From positions 2,464,856 through 2,504,855 of the forward strand of contig NZ_CP084222.1 of NCBI RefSeq assembly GCF_020268605.1: a DNA stretch of 40,000 nucleotides. Reading direction: 5' to 3'. A program made the position numbers and the translations under genes. Under the pieces are notes generated by a model that saw only the letters and a list, made by a program, of their open reading frames with translations, searched no databases and was not told the origin of the DNA. This stretch comes from Arsenophonus apicola. GTDB taxonomy: Bacteria > Pseudomonadota > Gammaproteobacteria > Enterobacterales > Enterobacteriaceae. Below, in pieces: positions 28,217 through 38,743 of the stretch. Each line of letters starts with the position of its first letter. Positions within the stretch are counted from its first letter, which is position 1.

Positions 28217-28696
28217 ATGAATAAGAAAAAACCTTTGACAAAAGAACAGCTAGATGATGCAAAAAGATTGAAATCAATCTACATGCTAAAAAAAAATGAA
28301 CTTTGCATCACTCAAGAAGATATAGCAGATCAATTAGGTATTGGTCAGGCTGCGGTTAGTCATTATCTAAATGGTGTAAATCCTTTAAATGCAAAAACTG
28401 TAGCTCTATTTGCAAAACTATTAAAAGTAAAACCAAATGAGATCAGCCCATCGATAGCTTTAGAGTTAGAAGAAATAGCAAAATTAATGCTACCAACAGA
28501 TCATAGTTATATGATACCTGATAATTCATATACCAAATTAACAAAAACAGAAGAAAAGCTTTTAGATATGTTCAATGCATTAACAGAAGATGAACAAAGA
28601 AATTATCTAGAAGAAATTGCTGAGACTCGGGCTAATCTTGAACGAATCTATAAAGAAATGAAAGAAAAAGAGAAAAAATCCAAAAGAGCATCGTGA
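28217..28696 (+). CDS. cI: CI-like repressor, module 1: lambda-CI-type N-terminal HTH domain and a short helical C-terminus, with no S24 peptidase domain
   Basis: 159 aa. KKKPLTKEQLDDAKRLKSIYMLKKNELCITQEDIADQLGIGQAAVSHYLNGVNPLNAKTVALFAKLLKVKPNEISPSIA is collinear with lambda CI residues about 4-85. The protein ends after about 70 more residues. Confidence 0.8.
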   Translation: MNKKKPLTKEQLDDAKRLKSIYMLKKNELCITQEDIADQLGIGQAAVSHYLNGVNPLNAKTVALFAKLLKVKPNEISPSIALELEEIAKLMLPTDHSYMIPDNSYTKLTKTEEKLLDMFNALTEDEQRNYLEEIAETRANLERIYKEMKEKEKKSKRAS

Positions 28697-28774
28697 TGCA
28701 TTTTTTAGAAATACAACCATTAAACTTATCTAAACAGGCATGACTATTTAGATTTTTATACAAAAGGACACTCT

Positions 28775-29614
28775 ATGAAGGTTAGTTTTTGGGCTTATTA
28801 TGCAAAAAATGATATCACTGATATAACAAGTAGAATTAATTTAACTCAGGCGATCAATGACAAAATAATAAATAAAAATTCTCATTCGCTTGAGTCTGGT
28901 AGTGACTATATATACTTACATCCTATAAATGCACAAACCTTTTTGTTTACTAAAACAAATGATTCTGAGCTAATAAAAAAAATTAACCAAACAAATAATT
29001 CAATTAACGATATCCGCGAAAGTTTAGCTGATGATGAAATACTAGGGTTTTCTTCTTTTGTTTTTATTGAAAATAGCATTTTAGGTTTTGTATCGACAAA
29101 TTGGAGCCCTAGAACGCGAGAATTTTGTGATTTTATAAAAAGTAAAGAATTGCTACAGCCTAACGAAAGCCTAATAGTTGAGCCTTTAATGCAAGGGATT
29201 ACTAAAGTTGATGCATTAAATATGAATTTTATCGGCAGAACGACTTTGAGGATTGAATCAGAAAACTCATTAACTAACAACATCCTCAGAAGTATTGGAG
29301 CTAAAAATGTAAGTGATGTGCTATTGAATGAAATTGAAATAATCATCAAACCTAAATATCGTAAAAATATTCAAAAATTAACAAAAGAAATTCTAGCAGC
29401 TAGCTATGATAAAATTGATGACATAAAAATTAAAGGCAAAGAATCAGCAGCTGATAAACTCACAGAATATTACTTAGATGGTAAAGGTCACATTGGCGCT
29501 AAAATAATAAAGAAAAGTTCTAACGCTGACATTGCTGAAGAAATTTTAGCTACGTACATTAGACTTAAACCATCTATACTTGAGTCTTTTAGAAAGATAG
29601 AATGTGAATTATAG
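28775..29614 (+). CDS. rexA: RexA homologue (abortive-infection/exclusion)
   Basis: 279 aa, the same length as lambda RexA. It shares blocks I recall from lambda RexA (TFLFTKTND, SLADDE-LGF, EPLM-G-TK, FIGRTT, IKPK, NA-IAEE). It sits directly after cI. Confidence 0.7.
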   Translation: MKVSFWAYYAKNDITDITSRINLTQAINDKIINKNSHSLESGSDYIYLHPINAQTFLFTKTNDSELIKKINQTNNSINDIRESLADDEILGFSSFVFIENSILGFVSTNWSPRTREFCDFIKSKELLQPNESLIVEPLMQGITKVDALNMNFIGRTTLRIESENSLTNNILRSIGAKNVSDVLLNEIEIIIKPKYRKNIQKLTKEILAASYDKIDDIKIKGKESAADKLTEYYLDGKGHIGAKIIKKSSNADIAEEILATYIRLKPSILESFRKIECEL

Positions 29615-29647
29615 CCGTATAAATTATATCATAGTGGGAAATATTTA

Positions 29648-30088
29648 ATGAACAAGTTGATAAAAATAGCATCAGCTATAATTCTATTTTCAATCCCATA
29701 CTTAATTACATTCCCAATTTTTTGTTGGTTTAAATATTCATTAACACCAAATCTATCTTTCTCCCTACACAGGGATGTTCTTGGTGCCACAGTTAGTTCT
29801 TATTCAAGCGCTCTTATTGCGGTACTTATAGTTGGACTCACATTTCTATTAGGGATAAAAAATAATAACTTCATTAAATTGCAGCAATACGGATACATGT
29901 TACCAATAATAACACTCTATGCTCTTACCTTTGTAGAGTTGGGAATATTGTTTTTTGCGGGTATAATTCTAATATCGAATTTTAAAGAATTACCATTACC
30001 ATCAATGGCTGCAATCATGGTTGTAACCTCATTTATGCACTTATGTTTATTGATACTTCAGCTGTATAATTTATCAAATAGAAAATAA
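29648..30088 (+). CDS. rexB: RexB homologue (polytopic membrane protein)
   Basis: 146 aa with four hydrophobic segments. It shares recalled lambda RexB blocks (HRD-LGAT-SSY, LTFL-G, YGYM, YAL-FVELG-LFF, QLYNL). Confidence 0.7.
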   Translation: MNKLIKIASAIILFSIPYLITFPIFCWFKYSLTPNLSFSLHRDVLGATVSSYSSALIAVLIVGLTFLLGIKNNNFIKLQQYGYMLPIITLYALTFVELGILFFAGIILISNFKELPLPSMAAIMVVTSFMHLCLLILQLYNLSNRK

Positions 30089-33885: not shown

Positions 33886-33905
33886 TAATATTGTCAGGTG
33901 AAAAA

Positions 33906-35634
33906 ATGAGTAAAAATATGCCAACAATGAATTTTGATACTAAAAATCAATCTTTTAATGAATTATTAAGTCCTTCATATAACTACATTGTCCCTCCTTT
34001 TCAACGTGATTATTCTTGGGAAGAGTCTGACTGGAATGAACTTTGGCAAGACATAGTAAGTTTACTAAACGATGAGCCATATTCTTTTCATTATATGGGT
34101 TACCTGGTACTACAAAGCGAAGATACAAAAAATTTTAAGATTGTTGATGGGCAACAAAGGATTACAACCATTAGTATAATAATTCTAGCTGCATGTTCCA
34201 TATTTGATGATTTAATAAATAATAATATTGATACAGAACAAAACAAAACAAGGAAAGAAAAATTTATAAGTAGTTATATAGGTTATACAGATCCTGTTCT
34301 AATCTGTGAACATACTAAATTACAACTAAATAAAAATAATGATAATTACTATCAAACTTATTTAGCTACATTAGCAAAGTTACCACAAAGAAACTTAAAT
34401 AACTCAGAGCATAAATTAAGGAAATCATTCTTTTTCTTCAAAAAAGAAATGGAAAATTATTTGTCTGAAATTCATGATAAAGGAACAGGATTAGCAAAAT
34501 TAATTGTTTTATAACAGAAAAGCTTTGCTTTACAACAATTACGGTAAGTAATGAAATCAATGCATTTAAAGTTTTTGAAACTCTAAATGCCAGAGGAGTA
34601 AAATTATCATCTACTGATTTATTAAAAAATTATATATTTTCAATTATTACTAACGAAAGTACTCATAATAATGAACTACGCCACTTAGAAAATAGATGGG
34701 AAAGAATTGTATCTATATTAGGAAACGATGAACTTACAGAACTTGTTCGCATTTATTGGAATAGCAAAAATAAATTAGCAAGAAAAAAAGAATTATTTAA
34801 AACGATAAAATCAACAATCAAAACAAAAGAGGACGCCTTTAATTTATTAAAAGAAATAGATAATTGCGCAGAAGTATACTCTGCTTTAAAAGATACTAAA
34901 GACTCCAATTTTTGGGATGATGAAGAAAAACATTACCTTGAATTACTATTCAATATATTCAATGTCAAACAACCATTTTCAATGCTTATTGCCTGCTATA
35001 ATGCATTTTATAACAATGACAGGAAAGGATTTAAAAAAATATTAAAATATATAACAATAATAACATTTAGATATAATATAATTTGTGGAATGCTTCCTCA
35101 TGAACAAGAAAGATTATATAGTTCAATATCACAAGGAATTTCATTAGAAAGTTATGGTGTTTCAAAAGTATTGAAAAATTTAAAAATTAAATTATATCCA
35201 TCAGATGATACATTCAAAAATGATTTTTCAAATAAAATAATAAAGACTGGTAATAATAGAAATACAAAACTTATAAAATATATACTTACTGAAATAGAAA
35301 AAAGTATAACAAATAGTACATCATACTATGATTTAAATACGGTAACTGTAGAGCATATTTTACCAAAATCTCCATCTGATGAATGGAATATTGGAAACGA
35401 TTATCATTTTGATAACCTAGTACATAGGATAGGTAATATGTGTTTATTAGCTAGCAATGACAATAAAAAGATAGGAAATAAATCCTTTGAGTATAAAAAC
35501 CATCCTATATCAATAGTAAATTTGATATAACAAAATACATTGGGAGTAATTATGAAGAATGGAATGAAAATTCAATAATAGAACGCCAAAAATTCTTAGC
35601 AAAAAAAAGCATTAAATATCTGGTCACTGAATGA
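33906..35634 (+). pseudogene. DUF262 (ParB-like NTPase/nuclease) plus DUF1524 (His-Me/HNH-like) protein, GmrSD-type type IV restriction/defence enzyme, broken by at least two 1-nt frameshifts
   Basis: Frame 0 reads IVPPFQRDYSWEESDWNELWQDI ... VDGQQRITT and stops at 34514. Frame -1, open from 34481, reads FKVFETLNARGVKLSSTDLLKNY ... TVEHILPKSP...HRIGNMCLL...NKKIGNKSF and stops at 35530. The next -1 frame, from about 35497, reads INSKFDITKYIGSNYEEWNENSIIERQKFLAKK. The shifts sit at T/A runs near 34495..34510 and at A5 35495..35499. Confidence 0.65.
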
Positions 35635-36323: not shown

Positions 36324-36581
36324 ATGAGATTGGACAATCCACGCATTGTAACAGCAAAACACCCTAATATGGGTAATCTGGTTGGGGTGACTAATGGCAG
36401 TCGCCATTTGAGCGATTCAATATACTTAAGCAGTATTGATATTAGTGATGATGATGACAGAGAAGTACGCTCTTTTAAGACAATCATACAGTGCTTAACA
36501 AATGAAAATGATCGTCTTAAGAAAGAGAACCGAAGACTCATGAAGATATACCGTGGAATTGGCGGGCTGTGCAGGATTTGA
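36324..36581 (+). CDS. Hypothetical protein with an acidic stretch and a C-terminal coiled coil
   Basis: 85-aa ORF with AAGAAGGA upstream. Its last 22 nt overlap the tRNA-like element on the other strand. Confidence 0.4.
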   Translation: MRLDNPRIVTAKHPNMGNLVGVTNGSRHLSDSIYLSSIDISDDDDREVRSFKTIIQCLTNENDRLKKENRRLMKIYRGIGGLCRI

Positions 36582-36632
36582 ACCTGCAATAAGTAAACTT
36601 CATTTACTGCTTTACCATTCAGCTAACAGTTC
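36560..36632 (-). tRNA. Degenerate tRNA-like element (anticodon-loop GAA, Phe-like), probably a pseudo-tRNA
   Basis: Minus strand: GAACTGT TA GCTG AATGGTA AAGC AGTAA ATGAAGT TTACT TATT GCAGG TTCAAAT CCTGC ACAGCCC G CCA. The T-arm, anticodon arm and encoded CCA are perfect. The acceptor stem has two A.C mismatches and position 26 is missing (73 nt). Confidence 0.4.
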
Positions 36633-36640
36633 ACTGACAA

Positions 36641-36973
36641 TCATAAGGCAGGCATCAAAAAGGCTTTTACCACAAGAGAAAGGATACCTAAAATACCCGC
36701 CCCCAACATCCAGCGTATTAATTTTTGTTCAGCACGAATTCCTGACATCTCTAGCTGTAGGTCTTTGCGGACTATTTCCATGTCTTTACGAACATCAGAT
36801 ATTTGCGCGCTTAAATCTTTGCGGACATCATCTAAATCTCTCTTTGTTGCTACATCAACCGCTTCGTGTGACTCACGCACAGCAATAGAAATCGCTTTCG
36901 CCTGTTCTGTTGGTAATCCAGCGCTTTCAAGCGTTTCAACAAATTTTAGTGTATCAAATGCAACCTGACCCAT
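36641..36973 (-). CDS. DUF1640-like coiled-coil protein with a C-terminal TM anchor
   Basis: Start taken at MGQVAFDTLKFVETLESAGL (ATG 36973, RBS GGAGGA). Has a repeated VRKDL motif and the terminal hydrophobic segment WMLGAGILGILSLVV. Confidence 0.6.
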   Translation of the reverse strand: MGQVAFDTLKFVETLESAGLPTEQAKAISIAVRESHEAVDVATKRDLDDVRKDLSAQISDVRKDMEIVRKDLQLEMSGIRAEQKLIRWMLGAGILGILSLVVKAFLMPAL

Positions 36974-37015
36974 AGGTAATCCTCCTTTTTGGTAAGTATA
37001 ACCTAACAATAACCA

Positions 37016-37045
37016 TTGACGAAAGAACAAATCATGCGCTATAGT
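37016..37045 (+). promoter_or_regulatory. Candidate promoter of the antirepressor-operon leader / small RNA
   Basis: TTGACG (37016..37021), 18-nt spacer, TATAGT (37040..37045). Confidence 0.4.
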
Positions 37046-37051
37046 TTATTT

Positions 37052-37129
37052 GCATCTGCAAAATCAGATGTCGGGATTCGAAACCCGTCAGTGTGTACCG
37101 GCCAATAACACGCCGAATGCGTGTTTTTT
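37052..37129 (+). ncRNA. Candidate ~78-nt small RNA or terminated leader with three hairpins
   Basis: Hairpin 1 is CATCTG-CAAAAT-CAGATG. Hairpin 2 is CGGG-ATTCGAAA-CCCG. Hairpin 3 is the terminator AACACGC-CGAAT-GCGTGTT plus T6 (37107..37129). The coordinates are predicted, not measured. Confidence 0.3.
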
Positions 37130-37287
37130 ATTGGTCATAACCTAGTCACATATCAATGGTGGCTCAGGTAGGGGAACCGTAAGGTTCGCCGGAGGTACAC
37201 CGGTATTTCGAACCCTGTCTGGGCTACCACCACGAGATTCGAAACTCCAGTGGTAGCATTTATCTAAATGTACCATTGGAGGTCAAT

Positions 37288-37821
37288 ATGACCACTCACT
37301 CATCCCTTGTTATTCCTAAAGTTAGTATTCACAAAGGTAAAGCGATTACCACCTCACAAGATGTAGCCGAATACTTCAACAAGCGCCATGACAACGTTCT
37401 ACGTGCTATCGGCAGTCTTGAGTGTTCATCTGAGTTTCGTCTCCTCAATTTTGAGGAGACGTTCTACATACGAGAAAATCCCAACGGTGGAGATGGGATC
37501 TCAACAAAGTGCTACGAAATGACTAAAGACGGCTTCGTATTCTTGGTGATGGGATTTACCGGAAAGAAAGCCGCTCAATTCAAGGAAGCCTACATTGCTG
37601 AATTTAATCGCATGGAAGCACAATTACACAATGCTGTTACCGTAACAGGTAATACAAACAAAATTCTTCTCACTTTACTTCCCAATGGCAAAGTAGATAG
37701 CGCAAGAGTAATTCATGATAATGAATATGTCGCTTCACTAGAGTCACTCTTCGAAATTGGTCGTCGTGCTGGTTACATGATCATTCACAAAGATGAATTA
37801 ATCAAAAAATTATCAGAATAG
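37288..37821 (+). CDS. Rha-family regulatory protein / putative antirepressor
   Basis: ATG 37288 follows GGAGG; the track used an upstream TTG. AITTSQDVAEYFNKRHDNVLRAI...YEMTKDGFVFLVMGFTGKKAAQFKEAYIAEFNRME is the Rha (pRha) domain pattern. Confidence 0.7.
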   Translation: MTTHSSLVIPKVSIHKGKAITTSQDVAEYFNKRHDNVLRAIGSLECSSEFRLLNFEETFYIRENPNGGDGISTKCYEMTKDGFVFLVMGFTGKKAAQFKEAYIAEFNRMEAQLHNAVTVTGNTNKILLTLLPNGKVDSARVIHDNEYVASLESLFEIGRRAGYMIIHKDELIKKLSE

Positions 37822-37918
37822 CTTACTTTTCCTTAGCACGTCTCCGTTTCAAACGGAAGCGTGCCGCAAATTAATAATACCAATATTCAATCATCAATTA
37901 ACTTTGAGGAATTTCTAT

Positions 37919-38743
37919 ATGCAAAATTTAATCAATATAGAAACAAAAAACATCAGTGGTGAATTAATCCAAACGGTTAATGCCCGTGATTTACATGCGT
38001 TTTTAGAAATTACTACGCGATTTAATGATTGGATAAATAGGCGTATAGCAGAATATAGTTTTGAAGAGAACATTGACTATATTATTGCTGAAAATTTGAG
38101 CTACTCAAATTTGAGTAGTGCAAAATCTCGCCAACGTATGATGAAAGACTACTATATCGCCATCGATATGGCGAAAGAGCTATCCATGGTTGAACGCAAT
38201 GAAAAAGGGAAACAGGCAAGGCAGTATTTTATTGAATGCGAAAGACGTGTTTTACAACCTCAACTTCACATTCAAACATTACTACCAACAAAAAAAGAAC
38301 TCGCTCTCATGGTTGTTCGTGCTGAAGAAGAGAAAGAACAGTTATTACTGGAAAATAAAAGTCTCTCAACCGAAAACGATTGTCTTAAAAATCTCTTTAA
38401 GGAAGGTATGACCCCTACCCAATTTAGCAAAATGCTTAATGGCGTAAACAGTCAGCAGATAAATCATTTTCTGGCAGAGAGGAAGTGGCTCTACAACGAA
38501 AGTAAATCCGGCATACGCTGGCGTGTTGCTTCTTATGCACGGGATAAATATTTAACCGAAAAACAAAGCGAAATAAGCCCACACGGTGCTGACAGATTCA
38601 TTAGTTATCAACCTGTATTACTCAAAAAAGGGGCGCGACGTCTCTATGATTTGTATCTGGATTACAAGCTGCCCATGAAACTGACGTGGAATGGTTCACA
38701 TACTCATGACAAGTCCATCCAGGGTATTCACCTGAAGCACTGA
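37919..38743 (+). CDS. AntA/KilAC-type antirepressor
   Basis: ATG 37919 follows GAGGA. The N-terminal AntA-like block is VNARDLHAFLEITTRFNDWINRRIAEYSFEENIDY. The C-terminal part is KilA-C/ANT-like. Confidence 0.7.
   Translation: MQNLINIETKNISGELIQTVNARDLHAFLEITTRFNDWINRRIAEYSFEENIDYIIAENLSYSNLSSAKSRQRMMKDYYIAIDMAKELSMVERNEKGKQARQYFIECERRVLQPQLHIQTLLPTKKELALMVVRAEEEKEQLLLENKSLSTENDCLKNLFKEGMTPTQFSKMLNGVNSQQINHFLAERKWLYNESKSGIRWRVASYARDKYLTEKQSEISPHGADRFISYQPVLLKKGARRLYDLYLDYKLPMKLTWNGSHTHDKSIQGIHLKH

Follow-up and report, generated by a model that had tools for sequence, protein, structure and literature searches.

The isrK–C4 module at 37016-37287

Within a window of 40,000 nucleotides (nt) from Arsenophonus apicola (RefSeq assembly GCF_020268605.1, contig NZ_CP084222.1, positions 2,464,856 to 2,504,855; the window is the whole stretch analysed, and coordinates count from its first letter), we analysed the region at 37016-37287, in front of an antirepressor operon. 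Judged by its sequence, this region is a phage isrK + C4 antisense immunity-RNA module, an ordinary and well-conserved copy of an already known kind. The P1/P7 immI layout can be followed along it: a predicted promoter, a leader with the sites a1 and b1, C4, the sites a2 and b2, a ribosome site, and genes for Rha-like and AntA/KilAC proteins. We are highly confident that it is a secondary-immunity (immI-type) module of a lambdoid prophage, predicted to silence the Rha/antirepressor operon through C4. An earlier note on this DNA had compared the region to the P1/P7 c4 immunity RNAs that control antirepressor operons; Rfam matches to isrK and C4, the two downstream genes and the a/b pairings bear this comparison out, and every string which the note quoted lies where it had placed it. 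The features are listed below; site names follow the phage P1 record, where the C4 junction holds a' and the hairpin 2 loop holds b'.

37016-37045, plus strand: predicted sigma-70-type promoter of the isrK/c4 operon, TTGACG-18-TATAGT (consensus scan)
37052-37129, plus strand: IsrK-family leader or short small RNA (sRNA) of about 78 nt (Rfam RF01394, fold, terminator)
37052-37071, plus strand: leader hairpin 1 (predicted fold; covaries in relatives)
37072-37087, plus strand: leader hairpin 2, CGGG-ATTCGAAA-CCCG (exact string and predicted fold)
37077-37083, plus strand: a1, UUCGAAA, loop of leader hairpin 2, complementary to a' (sequence; its position of -75 relative to C4 fits the family)
37093-37099, plus strand: b1, GUGUACC, single-stranded between hairpin 2 and the terminator, complementary to b' (unique in the window)
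37107-37129, plus strand: intrinsic terminator, AACACGC-CGAAT-GCGTGTT followed by six T (consensus scan)
37152-37234, plus strand: C4 antisense RNA (Rfam RF01695, predicted fold, covariation)
37157-37173 with 37213-37229, plus strand: C4 closing stem, 17 base pairs (bp; predicted fold)
37174-37187, plus strand: C4 hairpin 1 with a GUAA loop (predicted fold)
37188-37204, plus strand: C4 hairpin 2 (predicted fold; CCGG-AGGTACA-CCGG at 37189-37203)
37194-37200, plus strand: b', GGUACAC, loop of C4 hairpin 2, partner of b1 and b2 (fold, complementarity)
37206-37212, plus strand: a', UUUCGAA, single-stranded C4 junction, partner of a1 and a2 (fold, complementarity)
37230-37232, plus strand: CCA tail of C4, following a helix with the outer 7 bp TGGTGGC/GCTACCA
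37238-37244, plus strand: a2 target, UUCGAAA, complementary to a', about 5 nt past the predicted C4 3' end, as in P1
37269-37274, plus strand: b2 target, UGUACC, complementary to b', 3 nt ahead of the Shine-Dalgarno (SD) sequence
37278-37282, plus strand: SD sequence, GGAGG (sequence)
37288, plus strand: start codon AUG of the Rha-like gene (sequence)
37288-37821, plus strand: first putatively regulated gene, Rha-family phage regulatory protein (Pfam Phage_pRha, 1.5e-29; PHROG Rha-like regulators, anti-repressors)
37904-38743, plus strand: second putatively regulated gene, AntA + KilAC antirepressor (Pfam AntA, 2.3e-24, and ANT, 4.1e-06; PHROG anti-repressor Ant, 5.8e-51)

An Rfam scan of the whole window returned three matches at gathering level, namely isrK, the C4 antisense RNA and one tRNA on the minus strand. 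The C4 family, one of those against which the earlier note had proposed scanning, thus stands above its gathering threshold, whereas the P4 CI-type and tRNA models have no match in the region. A permissive scan of the region (E ≤10) gave nothing beyond isrK and C4 except a sub-threshold c4-a1b1 match and noise (mir-2253, snoRNAs). A tRNA or transfer-messenger RNA (tmRNA) identity for the region is ruled out, since ARAGORN calls neither in 37016-37287 and the Rfam tRNA model is without a match there.

The isrK match (RF01394) spans 37052-37129 and the full model (1-77 of 77) at 67.4 bits, against a gathering threshold of 50. Upstream of it, TTGACG at 37016-37021 and TATAGT at 37040-37045 form the top promoter-like site in 36600-37500, with 10 of 12 consensus positions matched, and the terminator at 37107-37129 is the sole terminator-like site in the same interval. 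The promoter, terminator and RNA of about 78 nt that the earlier note had predicted are therefore points on which the consensus scan, the fold and the full-length isrK match agree. The predicted features include an own promoter, two 5' hairpins, a Rho-independent terminator and an RNA of about 77 nt, as in IsrK. The folded 78-nt RNA consists of two hairpins and the terminator, with a z-score of only -1.45.

C4 (RF01695) is matched at 37152-37234 over the full model (1-87 of 87) with 67.2 bits against a gathering threshold of 45 (E=4e-11), and our own covariance model, R1, scores it at 74 bits. The 83-nt element is predicted to fold into a three-way junction at -40.9 kcal/mol, its minimum free energy structure being identical to the centroid (z=-5.0 against shuffles). 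It has the C4 shape, in which a long stem closes a tetraloop hairpin and a GCCGG/CCGGU hairpin whose loop is variable, and covariation backs all three helices. The acceptor-like helix with a CCA tail that had been pointed out before stands as well: the outer 7 bp and the CCA fall within the full-length C4 match. In P1/P7, RNase P, which cuts before GGU, excises C4 from a longer precursor to give an RNA of about 77 nt, as stated in the part of PMC5320573 that cites Hartmann 1995. The sequence here, with GGU at 37158-37160, the acceptor-like stem and CCA at 37230-37232, would be compatible with such excision, and by analogy with P1 the mature C4 is predicted to span about 37158-37232.

The earlier note had also seen three hairpins with a AUUCGAAA loop. 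Two of these loops exist (37076-37083 and 37237-37244), and they are a1 and a2; the third copy, TATTTCGAAC at 37204-37213, is no loop and instead forms the complementary strand in the junction. The string UAUUUCGAAC is the C4 a' segment, and the complementarity of the loops to it is the a1/a2:a' pairing of the family. Likewise, the complementarity between the single-stranded GUGUACC and the GGUACAC loop, correctly noticed before, is the b1:b' pairing of the C4 family, with a predicted duplex energy of -11.4 kcal/mol. The window holds a single GTGTACC and a single GGTACAC. Thus a' is predicted to pair with a1 and a2, and b' with b1 and b2, at positions that fit the family layout. Raw counts of TTCGAAA are ordinary (11 in the window vs 10.8 expected), so that only the arrangement counts as evidence: the composite TTCGAAA-N(8-38)-TGTACC occurs twice in 40 kb, flanking C4, where 0.05 occurrences are expected, and none of 100 shuffles reaches two. 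The Rha-like and AntA/KilAC genes lie directly downstream, an association with an antirepressor operon that is genomic. The locus could be annotated as isrK + C4 in control of Rha/Ant; its a/b specificity, UUCGAAA / GUACC, is its own.

Relatives and the specificity of the a and b sites

The leader pattern CYGCAAAATCRG-N4-CGGG is found in at least 120 viral contigs, and a longer version of it in at least 120 bacterial genome contigs; our survey covers about 160 related loci from among the matches listed. Among these matches, the genomes with the leader pattern belong to Enterobacterales, Pseudomonas, Xanthomonas, Halomonadaceae and others, and C4 accompanies the leader motif in 76 of 80 bacterial genome loci. 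With a covariance model from 25 C4 sequences, which was used to search the relatives, we found 87 C4 copies in 96 sources and also recovered C4 in P1 and Gifsy-1. Covariation in homologous leaders, a check that the earlier note had named beforehand, is present for the C4 fold, for leader hairpin 1 and for an alternative hairpin discussed below. In an alignment of 68 distinct C4 sequences, paired cells make up 99.1%, compensatory changes occur in 21 of 27 pairs and the covariation score is 0.575 vs 0.21 after shuffling (0/500 shuffles; slid partners ≤0.11); these figures are biased towards structure, as the seed set was picked by fold shape and the alignment was model-fitted, though the compensatory changes are nonetheless plain. 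The 85 distinct leaders show covariation in hairpin 1, a retained CGGG-N8-CCCG in hairpin 2 and a T-run at the same place (84/85). A TTGnn-N16-19-TAnnnT motif precedes 61 of the 85, with the -10 element at one fixed offset in 57 of the 61.

Relative to C4, the sites of the relatives sit at near constant positions (a1 at about -75, b1 at about -59, a2 at about +3 and b2 at about +30 to +38), which the window, with its b2 at about +34, fits exactly. We compared both single-stranded C4 segments of each locus with its own flanks and with those of other loci. The two segments come in 49 and 30 different sequences, making up 56 specificity classes, and the median complementarity is 7-9 nt within a locus vs 4-5 nt across loci; a complementarity of at least 7 nt is reached in 75-95% of within-locus comparisons vs 3-5% of cross-locus ones. 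Sites that differ between loci yet are complementary within each are, at the level of sequence, the signature of an antisense recognition code. Family membership, fold, layout and the co-variation of a/b specificity are established for this locus.

This survey also bears on how the AUUCGAAA loops act. The earlier note had suggested that the hairpin loops kiss through their self-complementary UUCGAA core, and the core is indeed palindromic, with a1 and a2 both able to sit in hairpin loops. Among 30 different a1 loops from 85 related leaders, however, only two carry the palindrome, this locus and one other, and the common loops AUUGGCGU, CGUAGGAA and CGUGAGAA are unable to self-pair; what is conserved is complementarity to the C4 a' segment. 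Loop-loop kissing as the regulatory event is thus very improbable. A second suggestion, an alternative pairing of GGUUCG (37183-37188) with CGAACC (37209-37214), fell as well, its complementarity being lost in relatives. As a candidate helix it was rejected: the 3' arm of hairpin 1 varies (GGCUC, GUCGG, GAAGC) and the AACCC side is nearly constant.

The window's a/b pair (UUCGAAA / GUACC) was not seen in about 70 other sampled loci, among the matches listed. The nearest phage DNA comes from the APSE group (76-79% identity) and from Hafnia phage Meifeng; near-identical DNA is absent among complete E. coli genomes, and an exact 49-mer of C4 has no match among GTDB species representatives. The Rha-like protein also occurs in a JGI metagenome contig (479 kb), an NCBI metagenome-assembled genome (MAG) and two SRA assemblies; the stretch from promoter to Rha is identical in three of these four contigs, and that of the NCBI MAG differs by one base.

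Some relatives carry more than one copy. A viral contig (L070:1324-1745) and a Buttiauxella MAG (L185:4203-4624) each have three C4 copies in about 420 nt, two of the three being direct neighbours, and another locus (L107:2269-3501) holds two full isrK-C4 modules 1 kb apart, with a sites UUGGAAC vs UUUGCAC and a common b site.

Proposed translational control and alternative helices

The mechanism which we propose extends P1/P7 and Gifsy-1 to this locus, where RNase P processing, translational repression and an activating role of IsrK would hold by analogy. The sigma-70 promoter at 37016-37045 would drive a single transcript, and most transcripts would probably end at the 37107-37129 terminator, giving an IsrK-family RNA of about 78 nt with the a1 and b1 copies. 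Read-through RNA would contain C4 (about 37158-37232), presumably cut at its 5' end by RNase P and trimmed at its CCA tail. The a' and b' segments of C4 would then pair with a2 (37238-37244) and b2 (37269-37274) just upstream of the Rha-like ribosome binding site and block Rha/antirepressor translation, which would hold lysogeny and confer sequence-specific immunity. The short IsrK, with identical a1/b1 sites, would bind and counteract C4 and so turn antirepressor synthesis on.

Processed C4 might instead act in the manner of P4 CI, pairing with nascent a1/b1 and a2/b2 to alter termination, not translation, and so autoregulating read-through at 37107-37129. The end of b1 lies 7 nt ahead of the terminator stem, and the targets on either side of the RNA gene resemble seqA/seqC of P4, a parallel raised by the authors of the Gifsy-1 work (PMC4825925). 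On the other hand, constitutive C4-containing RNA in Gifsy-1 did not weaken the IsrK-dependent growth arrest, which was more pronounced instead; b2 lies beside the SD here and on it in P1 and APSE, which points to translational control; and no other Rfam family appears in the region at a meaningful E-value. We consider termination control improbable at this locus.

Further helices, which are shared out among the same strands, surround the downstream targets:

37223-37257, plus strand: alternative hairpin GCTACCAC...GTGGTAGC, C4 3' arm (37223-37230) with a downstream arm (37250-37257) (predicted fold, covariation)
37245-37281, plus strand: hairpin burying b2 and the SD, CUCC (37245-37248) with GGAG (37278-37281) (predicted fold, -20.2 kcal/mol)

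The alternative hairpin holds a2 in its loop, excludes the C4 stem and has a predicted energy of -15.5 kcal/mol. In 60 sequences, including P1 and Gifsy-1, 87% of its cells are paired and six of nine outer pairs show compensatory changes; its covariation score is 0.37 vs 0.19 shuffled and ≤0.14 with slid partners, the shuffles ignoring relatedness. The competition that the earlier note had proposed, GCTACCA pairing with either TGGTGGC or GTGGTAGC, is therefore real and conserved, since it covaries across these 60 sequences. The palindrome CATTTATCTAAATG at 37257-37270 turns out to be the tip of the second hairpin (37245-37281). In window RNA downstream of C4 the predicted probability that the SD is unpaired is 0.02. 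Across 54 loci the accessibility of the SD is 0.19 vs 0.41 in controls with shuffled upstream sequence and is lower in 93% of loci (p=1e-8), the share of the downstream arm in this occlusion being modest (0.63 vs 0.45 with the arm shuffled).

These helices form a chain: the C4 5' arm with the 3' arm; the 3' arm with the downstream arm, which puts a2 in a loop; and this downstream arm, in turn, with the region of b2, SD and start codon. On these predicted folds, the conserved alternative hairpin, built in part from the C4 3' arm, may couple the folding of C4 to occlusion of the ribosome site as a cis switch. If the chain is functional, C4 folding or excision would itself set the ribosome site of the antirepressor operon open or closed, and the chain would be a cis switch on top of trans antisense control.

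A stronger form of this idea is that the locus is mainly a cis-acting conformational switch, in which C4 is no diffusible repressor and the leader toggles between an inactive and an active fold like structures A and B of Gifsy-1. In that prophage, both genetics and native gels speak for two conformers and for trans-activation by IsrK (PMC4825925), and here the C4 3' arm pairs with either the C4 5' arm or the downstream arm, an alternative that covaries, with the downstream arm in turn occluding b2 and the SD. However, the P1 annotation and the parts of PMC5320573 and PMC12197685 devoted to P1/P7 C4 present it as a processed RNA that represses in trans and determines heteroimmunity, Salmonella contains a stable processed RNA of about 80 nt (STnc1160), and the 17-bp C4 stem (element at -40.9 kcal/mol) is much stronger than the alternative hairpin (-15.5). 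A mainly cis-acting switch is in our view unlikely, although the cis and trans models are not mutually exclusive.

Several points weigh against silencing of the operon by C4, as proposed above. The predicted duplexes with the targets have only 7 bp (-6.0 kcal/mol) and 6 bp (-8.6 kcal/mol), and b2 stops 3 nt before the SD, with no overlap, unlike in P1 and APSE. Both b2 and the SD are already buried in a hairpin of -20 kcal/mol, so that C4 may be unneeded for occlusion or may reach b2 poorly. The c4-a1b1 motif (Rfam RF03163), which P1 (51 bits) and Gifsy-1 (48.1 bits) pass, stays below its gathering threshold here, at 39.1 vs 46.7 bits (37039-37091; E=4.7e-8, local search); the same bases are also covered by the stronger isrK match. 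Nor does the window hold an equivalent of Gifsy-1 orf45, whose 45 codons begin at the conserved AUGG of the C4 stem and overlap the start of anrP (translational coupling): the AUGG frame here has only 8 codons, with a stop in the GUAA loop of C4 hairpin 1. In relatives this frame stops inside C4 in 10 loci, lacks the AUGG in 7 and runs past C4 in 54, in 34 of which it is open at the end of the examined sequence. Finally, a1 mutations in cis raise basal translation in Gifsy-1 (PMC4825925), a result that a simple decoy role of IsrK leaves unexplained.

Prophage context and comparison with known systems

The window contains a lambdoid prophage, with tail, capsid, portal, terminase, Q and replication genes on the minus strand, and a low-GC accessory island precedes the isrK-C4-rha-ant module. 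A lambda-like immunity operon lies at 28217-30088, with a helix-turn-helix (HTH_3) repressor at 28217-28696 (159 amino acids) and homologues of RexA (28775-29614) and RexB (29648-30088). The repressor has no Pfam match to a self-cleaving peptidase (S24) domain, and an RNA-controlled antirepressor would fit a repressor of this kind, which may need an antirepressor for induction, as in Gifsy phages.

Other observations concern the surroundings of the module. The -35 region of the isrK/c4 promoter, AACCATTGACGAAAGAACA (37011-37029), recurs with two differences as AACCTTTGACAAAAGAACA at 28230-28248, within the first codons of the repressor-like open reading frame (ORF; 28217-28696). These are the only two window sites at ≤3 mismatches vs 0.12 in shuffles, a circular test since the pattern was derived from both; the repeat may have arisen by chance, or may be an operator or internal promoter. 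A minus-strand promoter-like site (37022-36995) overlaps the plus-strand -35 of the isrK promoter, and immediately upstream of this promoter lies a divergent ORF for a CCDC90-like coiled-coil protein (36641-36973, minus strand; PHROG 9415, of unknown function). The tRNA-like gene at 36560-36632 (minus strand) is the only ARAGORN call in the window (Phe-GAA; Rfam tRNA at 36563-36632, 45 bits). It has two mismatched pairs atop its acceptor stem, overlaps the end of an APSE p49-like ORF (36324-36581), and could be a degenerate phage tRNA or the remnant of an old attachment site. Within the low-GC island (GC content 0.28-0.36 at 28-36 kb), a GmrSD-type restriction gene at 33891-35530 is split into an N-domain ORF (33891-34514) and a C-domain ORF (34982-35530), and is probably a disrupted defence gene.

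Among known systems, P4 CI RNA (seqA/seqC) and P22 sar are, like the present locus, small phage RNAs whose base pairing restrains lytic or antirepressor functions. In P4, target copies stand on either side of the RNA that is processed, and the window has such copies around C4. The process on which P4 CI acts is transcription termination, and P22 sar is transcribed as a true cis-antisense RNA to ant. The C4 fold is absent from both, and the region gave no Rfam match to P4 CI or sar-type families.

Much closer are the APSE phages of Hamiltonella defensa (Sendosyvirus), which share 76-79% identity with the promoter, leader and 5' half of C4 (about 37008-37192). In front of BRO-N and Rha genes, their records carry annotations for an "isrK Hfq binding RNA family sRNA" and a "C4 antisense family sRNA", together with a'/b' features, as described in Rouïl et al. 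2020 (PMC7313666). Unlike the window, APSE has the a/b specificity UUGAGAC and GCUAACAAGG and a b2 that overlaps the SD; its a'/b' labels are swapped relative to P1, and the APSE phage is podovirus-like whereas the window prophage is lambdoid.

The immI system of P1/P7 (c4-icd-ant) shares with the window the order of promoter, a1/b1, C4, a2/b2, ribosome site and antirepressor operon. In the P1 record the order is operator Oc4, promoters (P1c4), a1, b1, c4, a2, b2 on the icd SD, icd and ant. Its C4 has the same fold and Rfam family (68.8 bits vs 67.2 in the window) and the same placement of a' (junction) and b' (hairpin 2 loop), and its a2 follows C4 directly within a hairpin that reuses the C4 3' arm, as in the window. 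The differences are that P1 has no gathering-level isrK match between b1 and c4, where the window has a strong intrinsic terminator; that b2 overlaps the icd SD in P1 and ends 3 nt before the SD in the window; that the first gene is icd in the former and Rha-like in the latter; that the P1 promoter is overlapped by the C1 operator Oc4, with none identified in the window; and that P1 is a P1-type plasmid prophage, the window prophage being lambdoid, with different a/b sequences. That P1/P7 C4 sets heteroimmunity as a processed trans-acting repressor goes back to Citron & Schuster 1990, in the summaries given within PMC5320573 and PMC12197685.

Gifsy-1, a lambdoid prophage too, has isrK (34240-34316, 79.3 bits) directly followed by C4 (34131-34214, 69 bits), the gene for the antirepressor AnrP and isrJ, and shares with the window the promoter spacing, the two leader hairpins, the terminator and the a2 hairpin; its a site is UUGGCGU vs UUCGAAA here. 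According to Hershko-Shalev et al. 2016 (PMC4825925), the Gifsy-1 isrK promoter gives rise to a translationally silent read-through mRNA, isrK-orf45-anrP, short IsrK in trans raises anrP translation 139-fold, and compensatory mutants prove the pairs G28-C162 and G31-C159. The read-through transcript is also the source of STnc1160, a processed Salmonella RNA of about 80 nt (PMC4825925). Hfq binding of IsrK and trans-activation of antirepressor translation were shown for Gifsy-1 only (PMC4825925). Counting along the sequence, G28 and G31 map to a1 (UUGGCGU) and C159 and C162 to a' (ACGCCAA) of the Gifsy-1 C4. Within 34131-34329 of the Gifsy-1 sequence, the published "orf45/STnc1160" coincides with the Rfam C4 match, and the published IsrK-orf45 pairs are a1:a' pairs.

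Taken jointly, we tentatively propose that IsrK is the terminated a1/b1 leader of the c4 operon across Gammaproteobacteria, with Gifsy-1 orf45/STnc1160 being C4 itself, and that a conserved chain of mutually exclusive helices accompanies it; this is possible, at rather less than even probability. PMC4825925 likens the Gifsy-1 system to P4 CI and never names C4, and in a 2025 review IsrK and c4 stand as two separate systems; the shared-arm helix chain and the explicit identification of IsrK as the c4 leader may be the only parts that are perhaps under-described. If IsrK is the c4 leader generally, it would be a built-in anti-antisense partner of C4 and no separate invention of Gifsy-1. The IsrK leader and C4 would then be two halves of one very widespread module, an identification that the Gifsy-1 paper and the 2025 review do not make, and this view, together with the conserved alternative hairpin, could help to interpret antirepressor-dependent switches of prophage induction.

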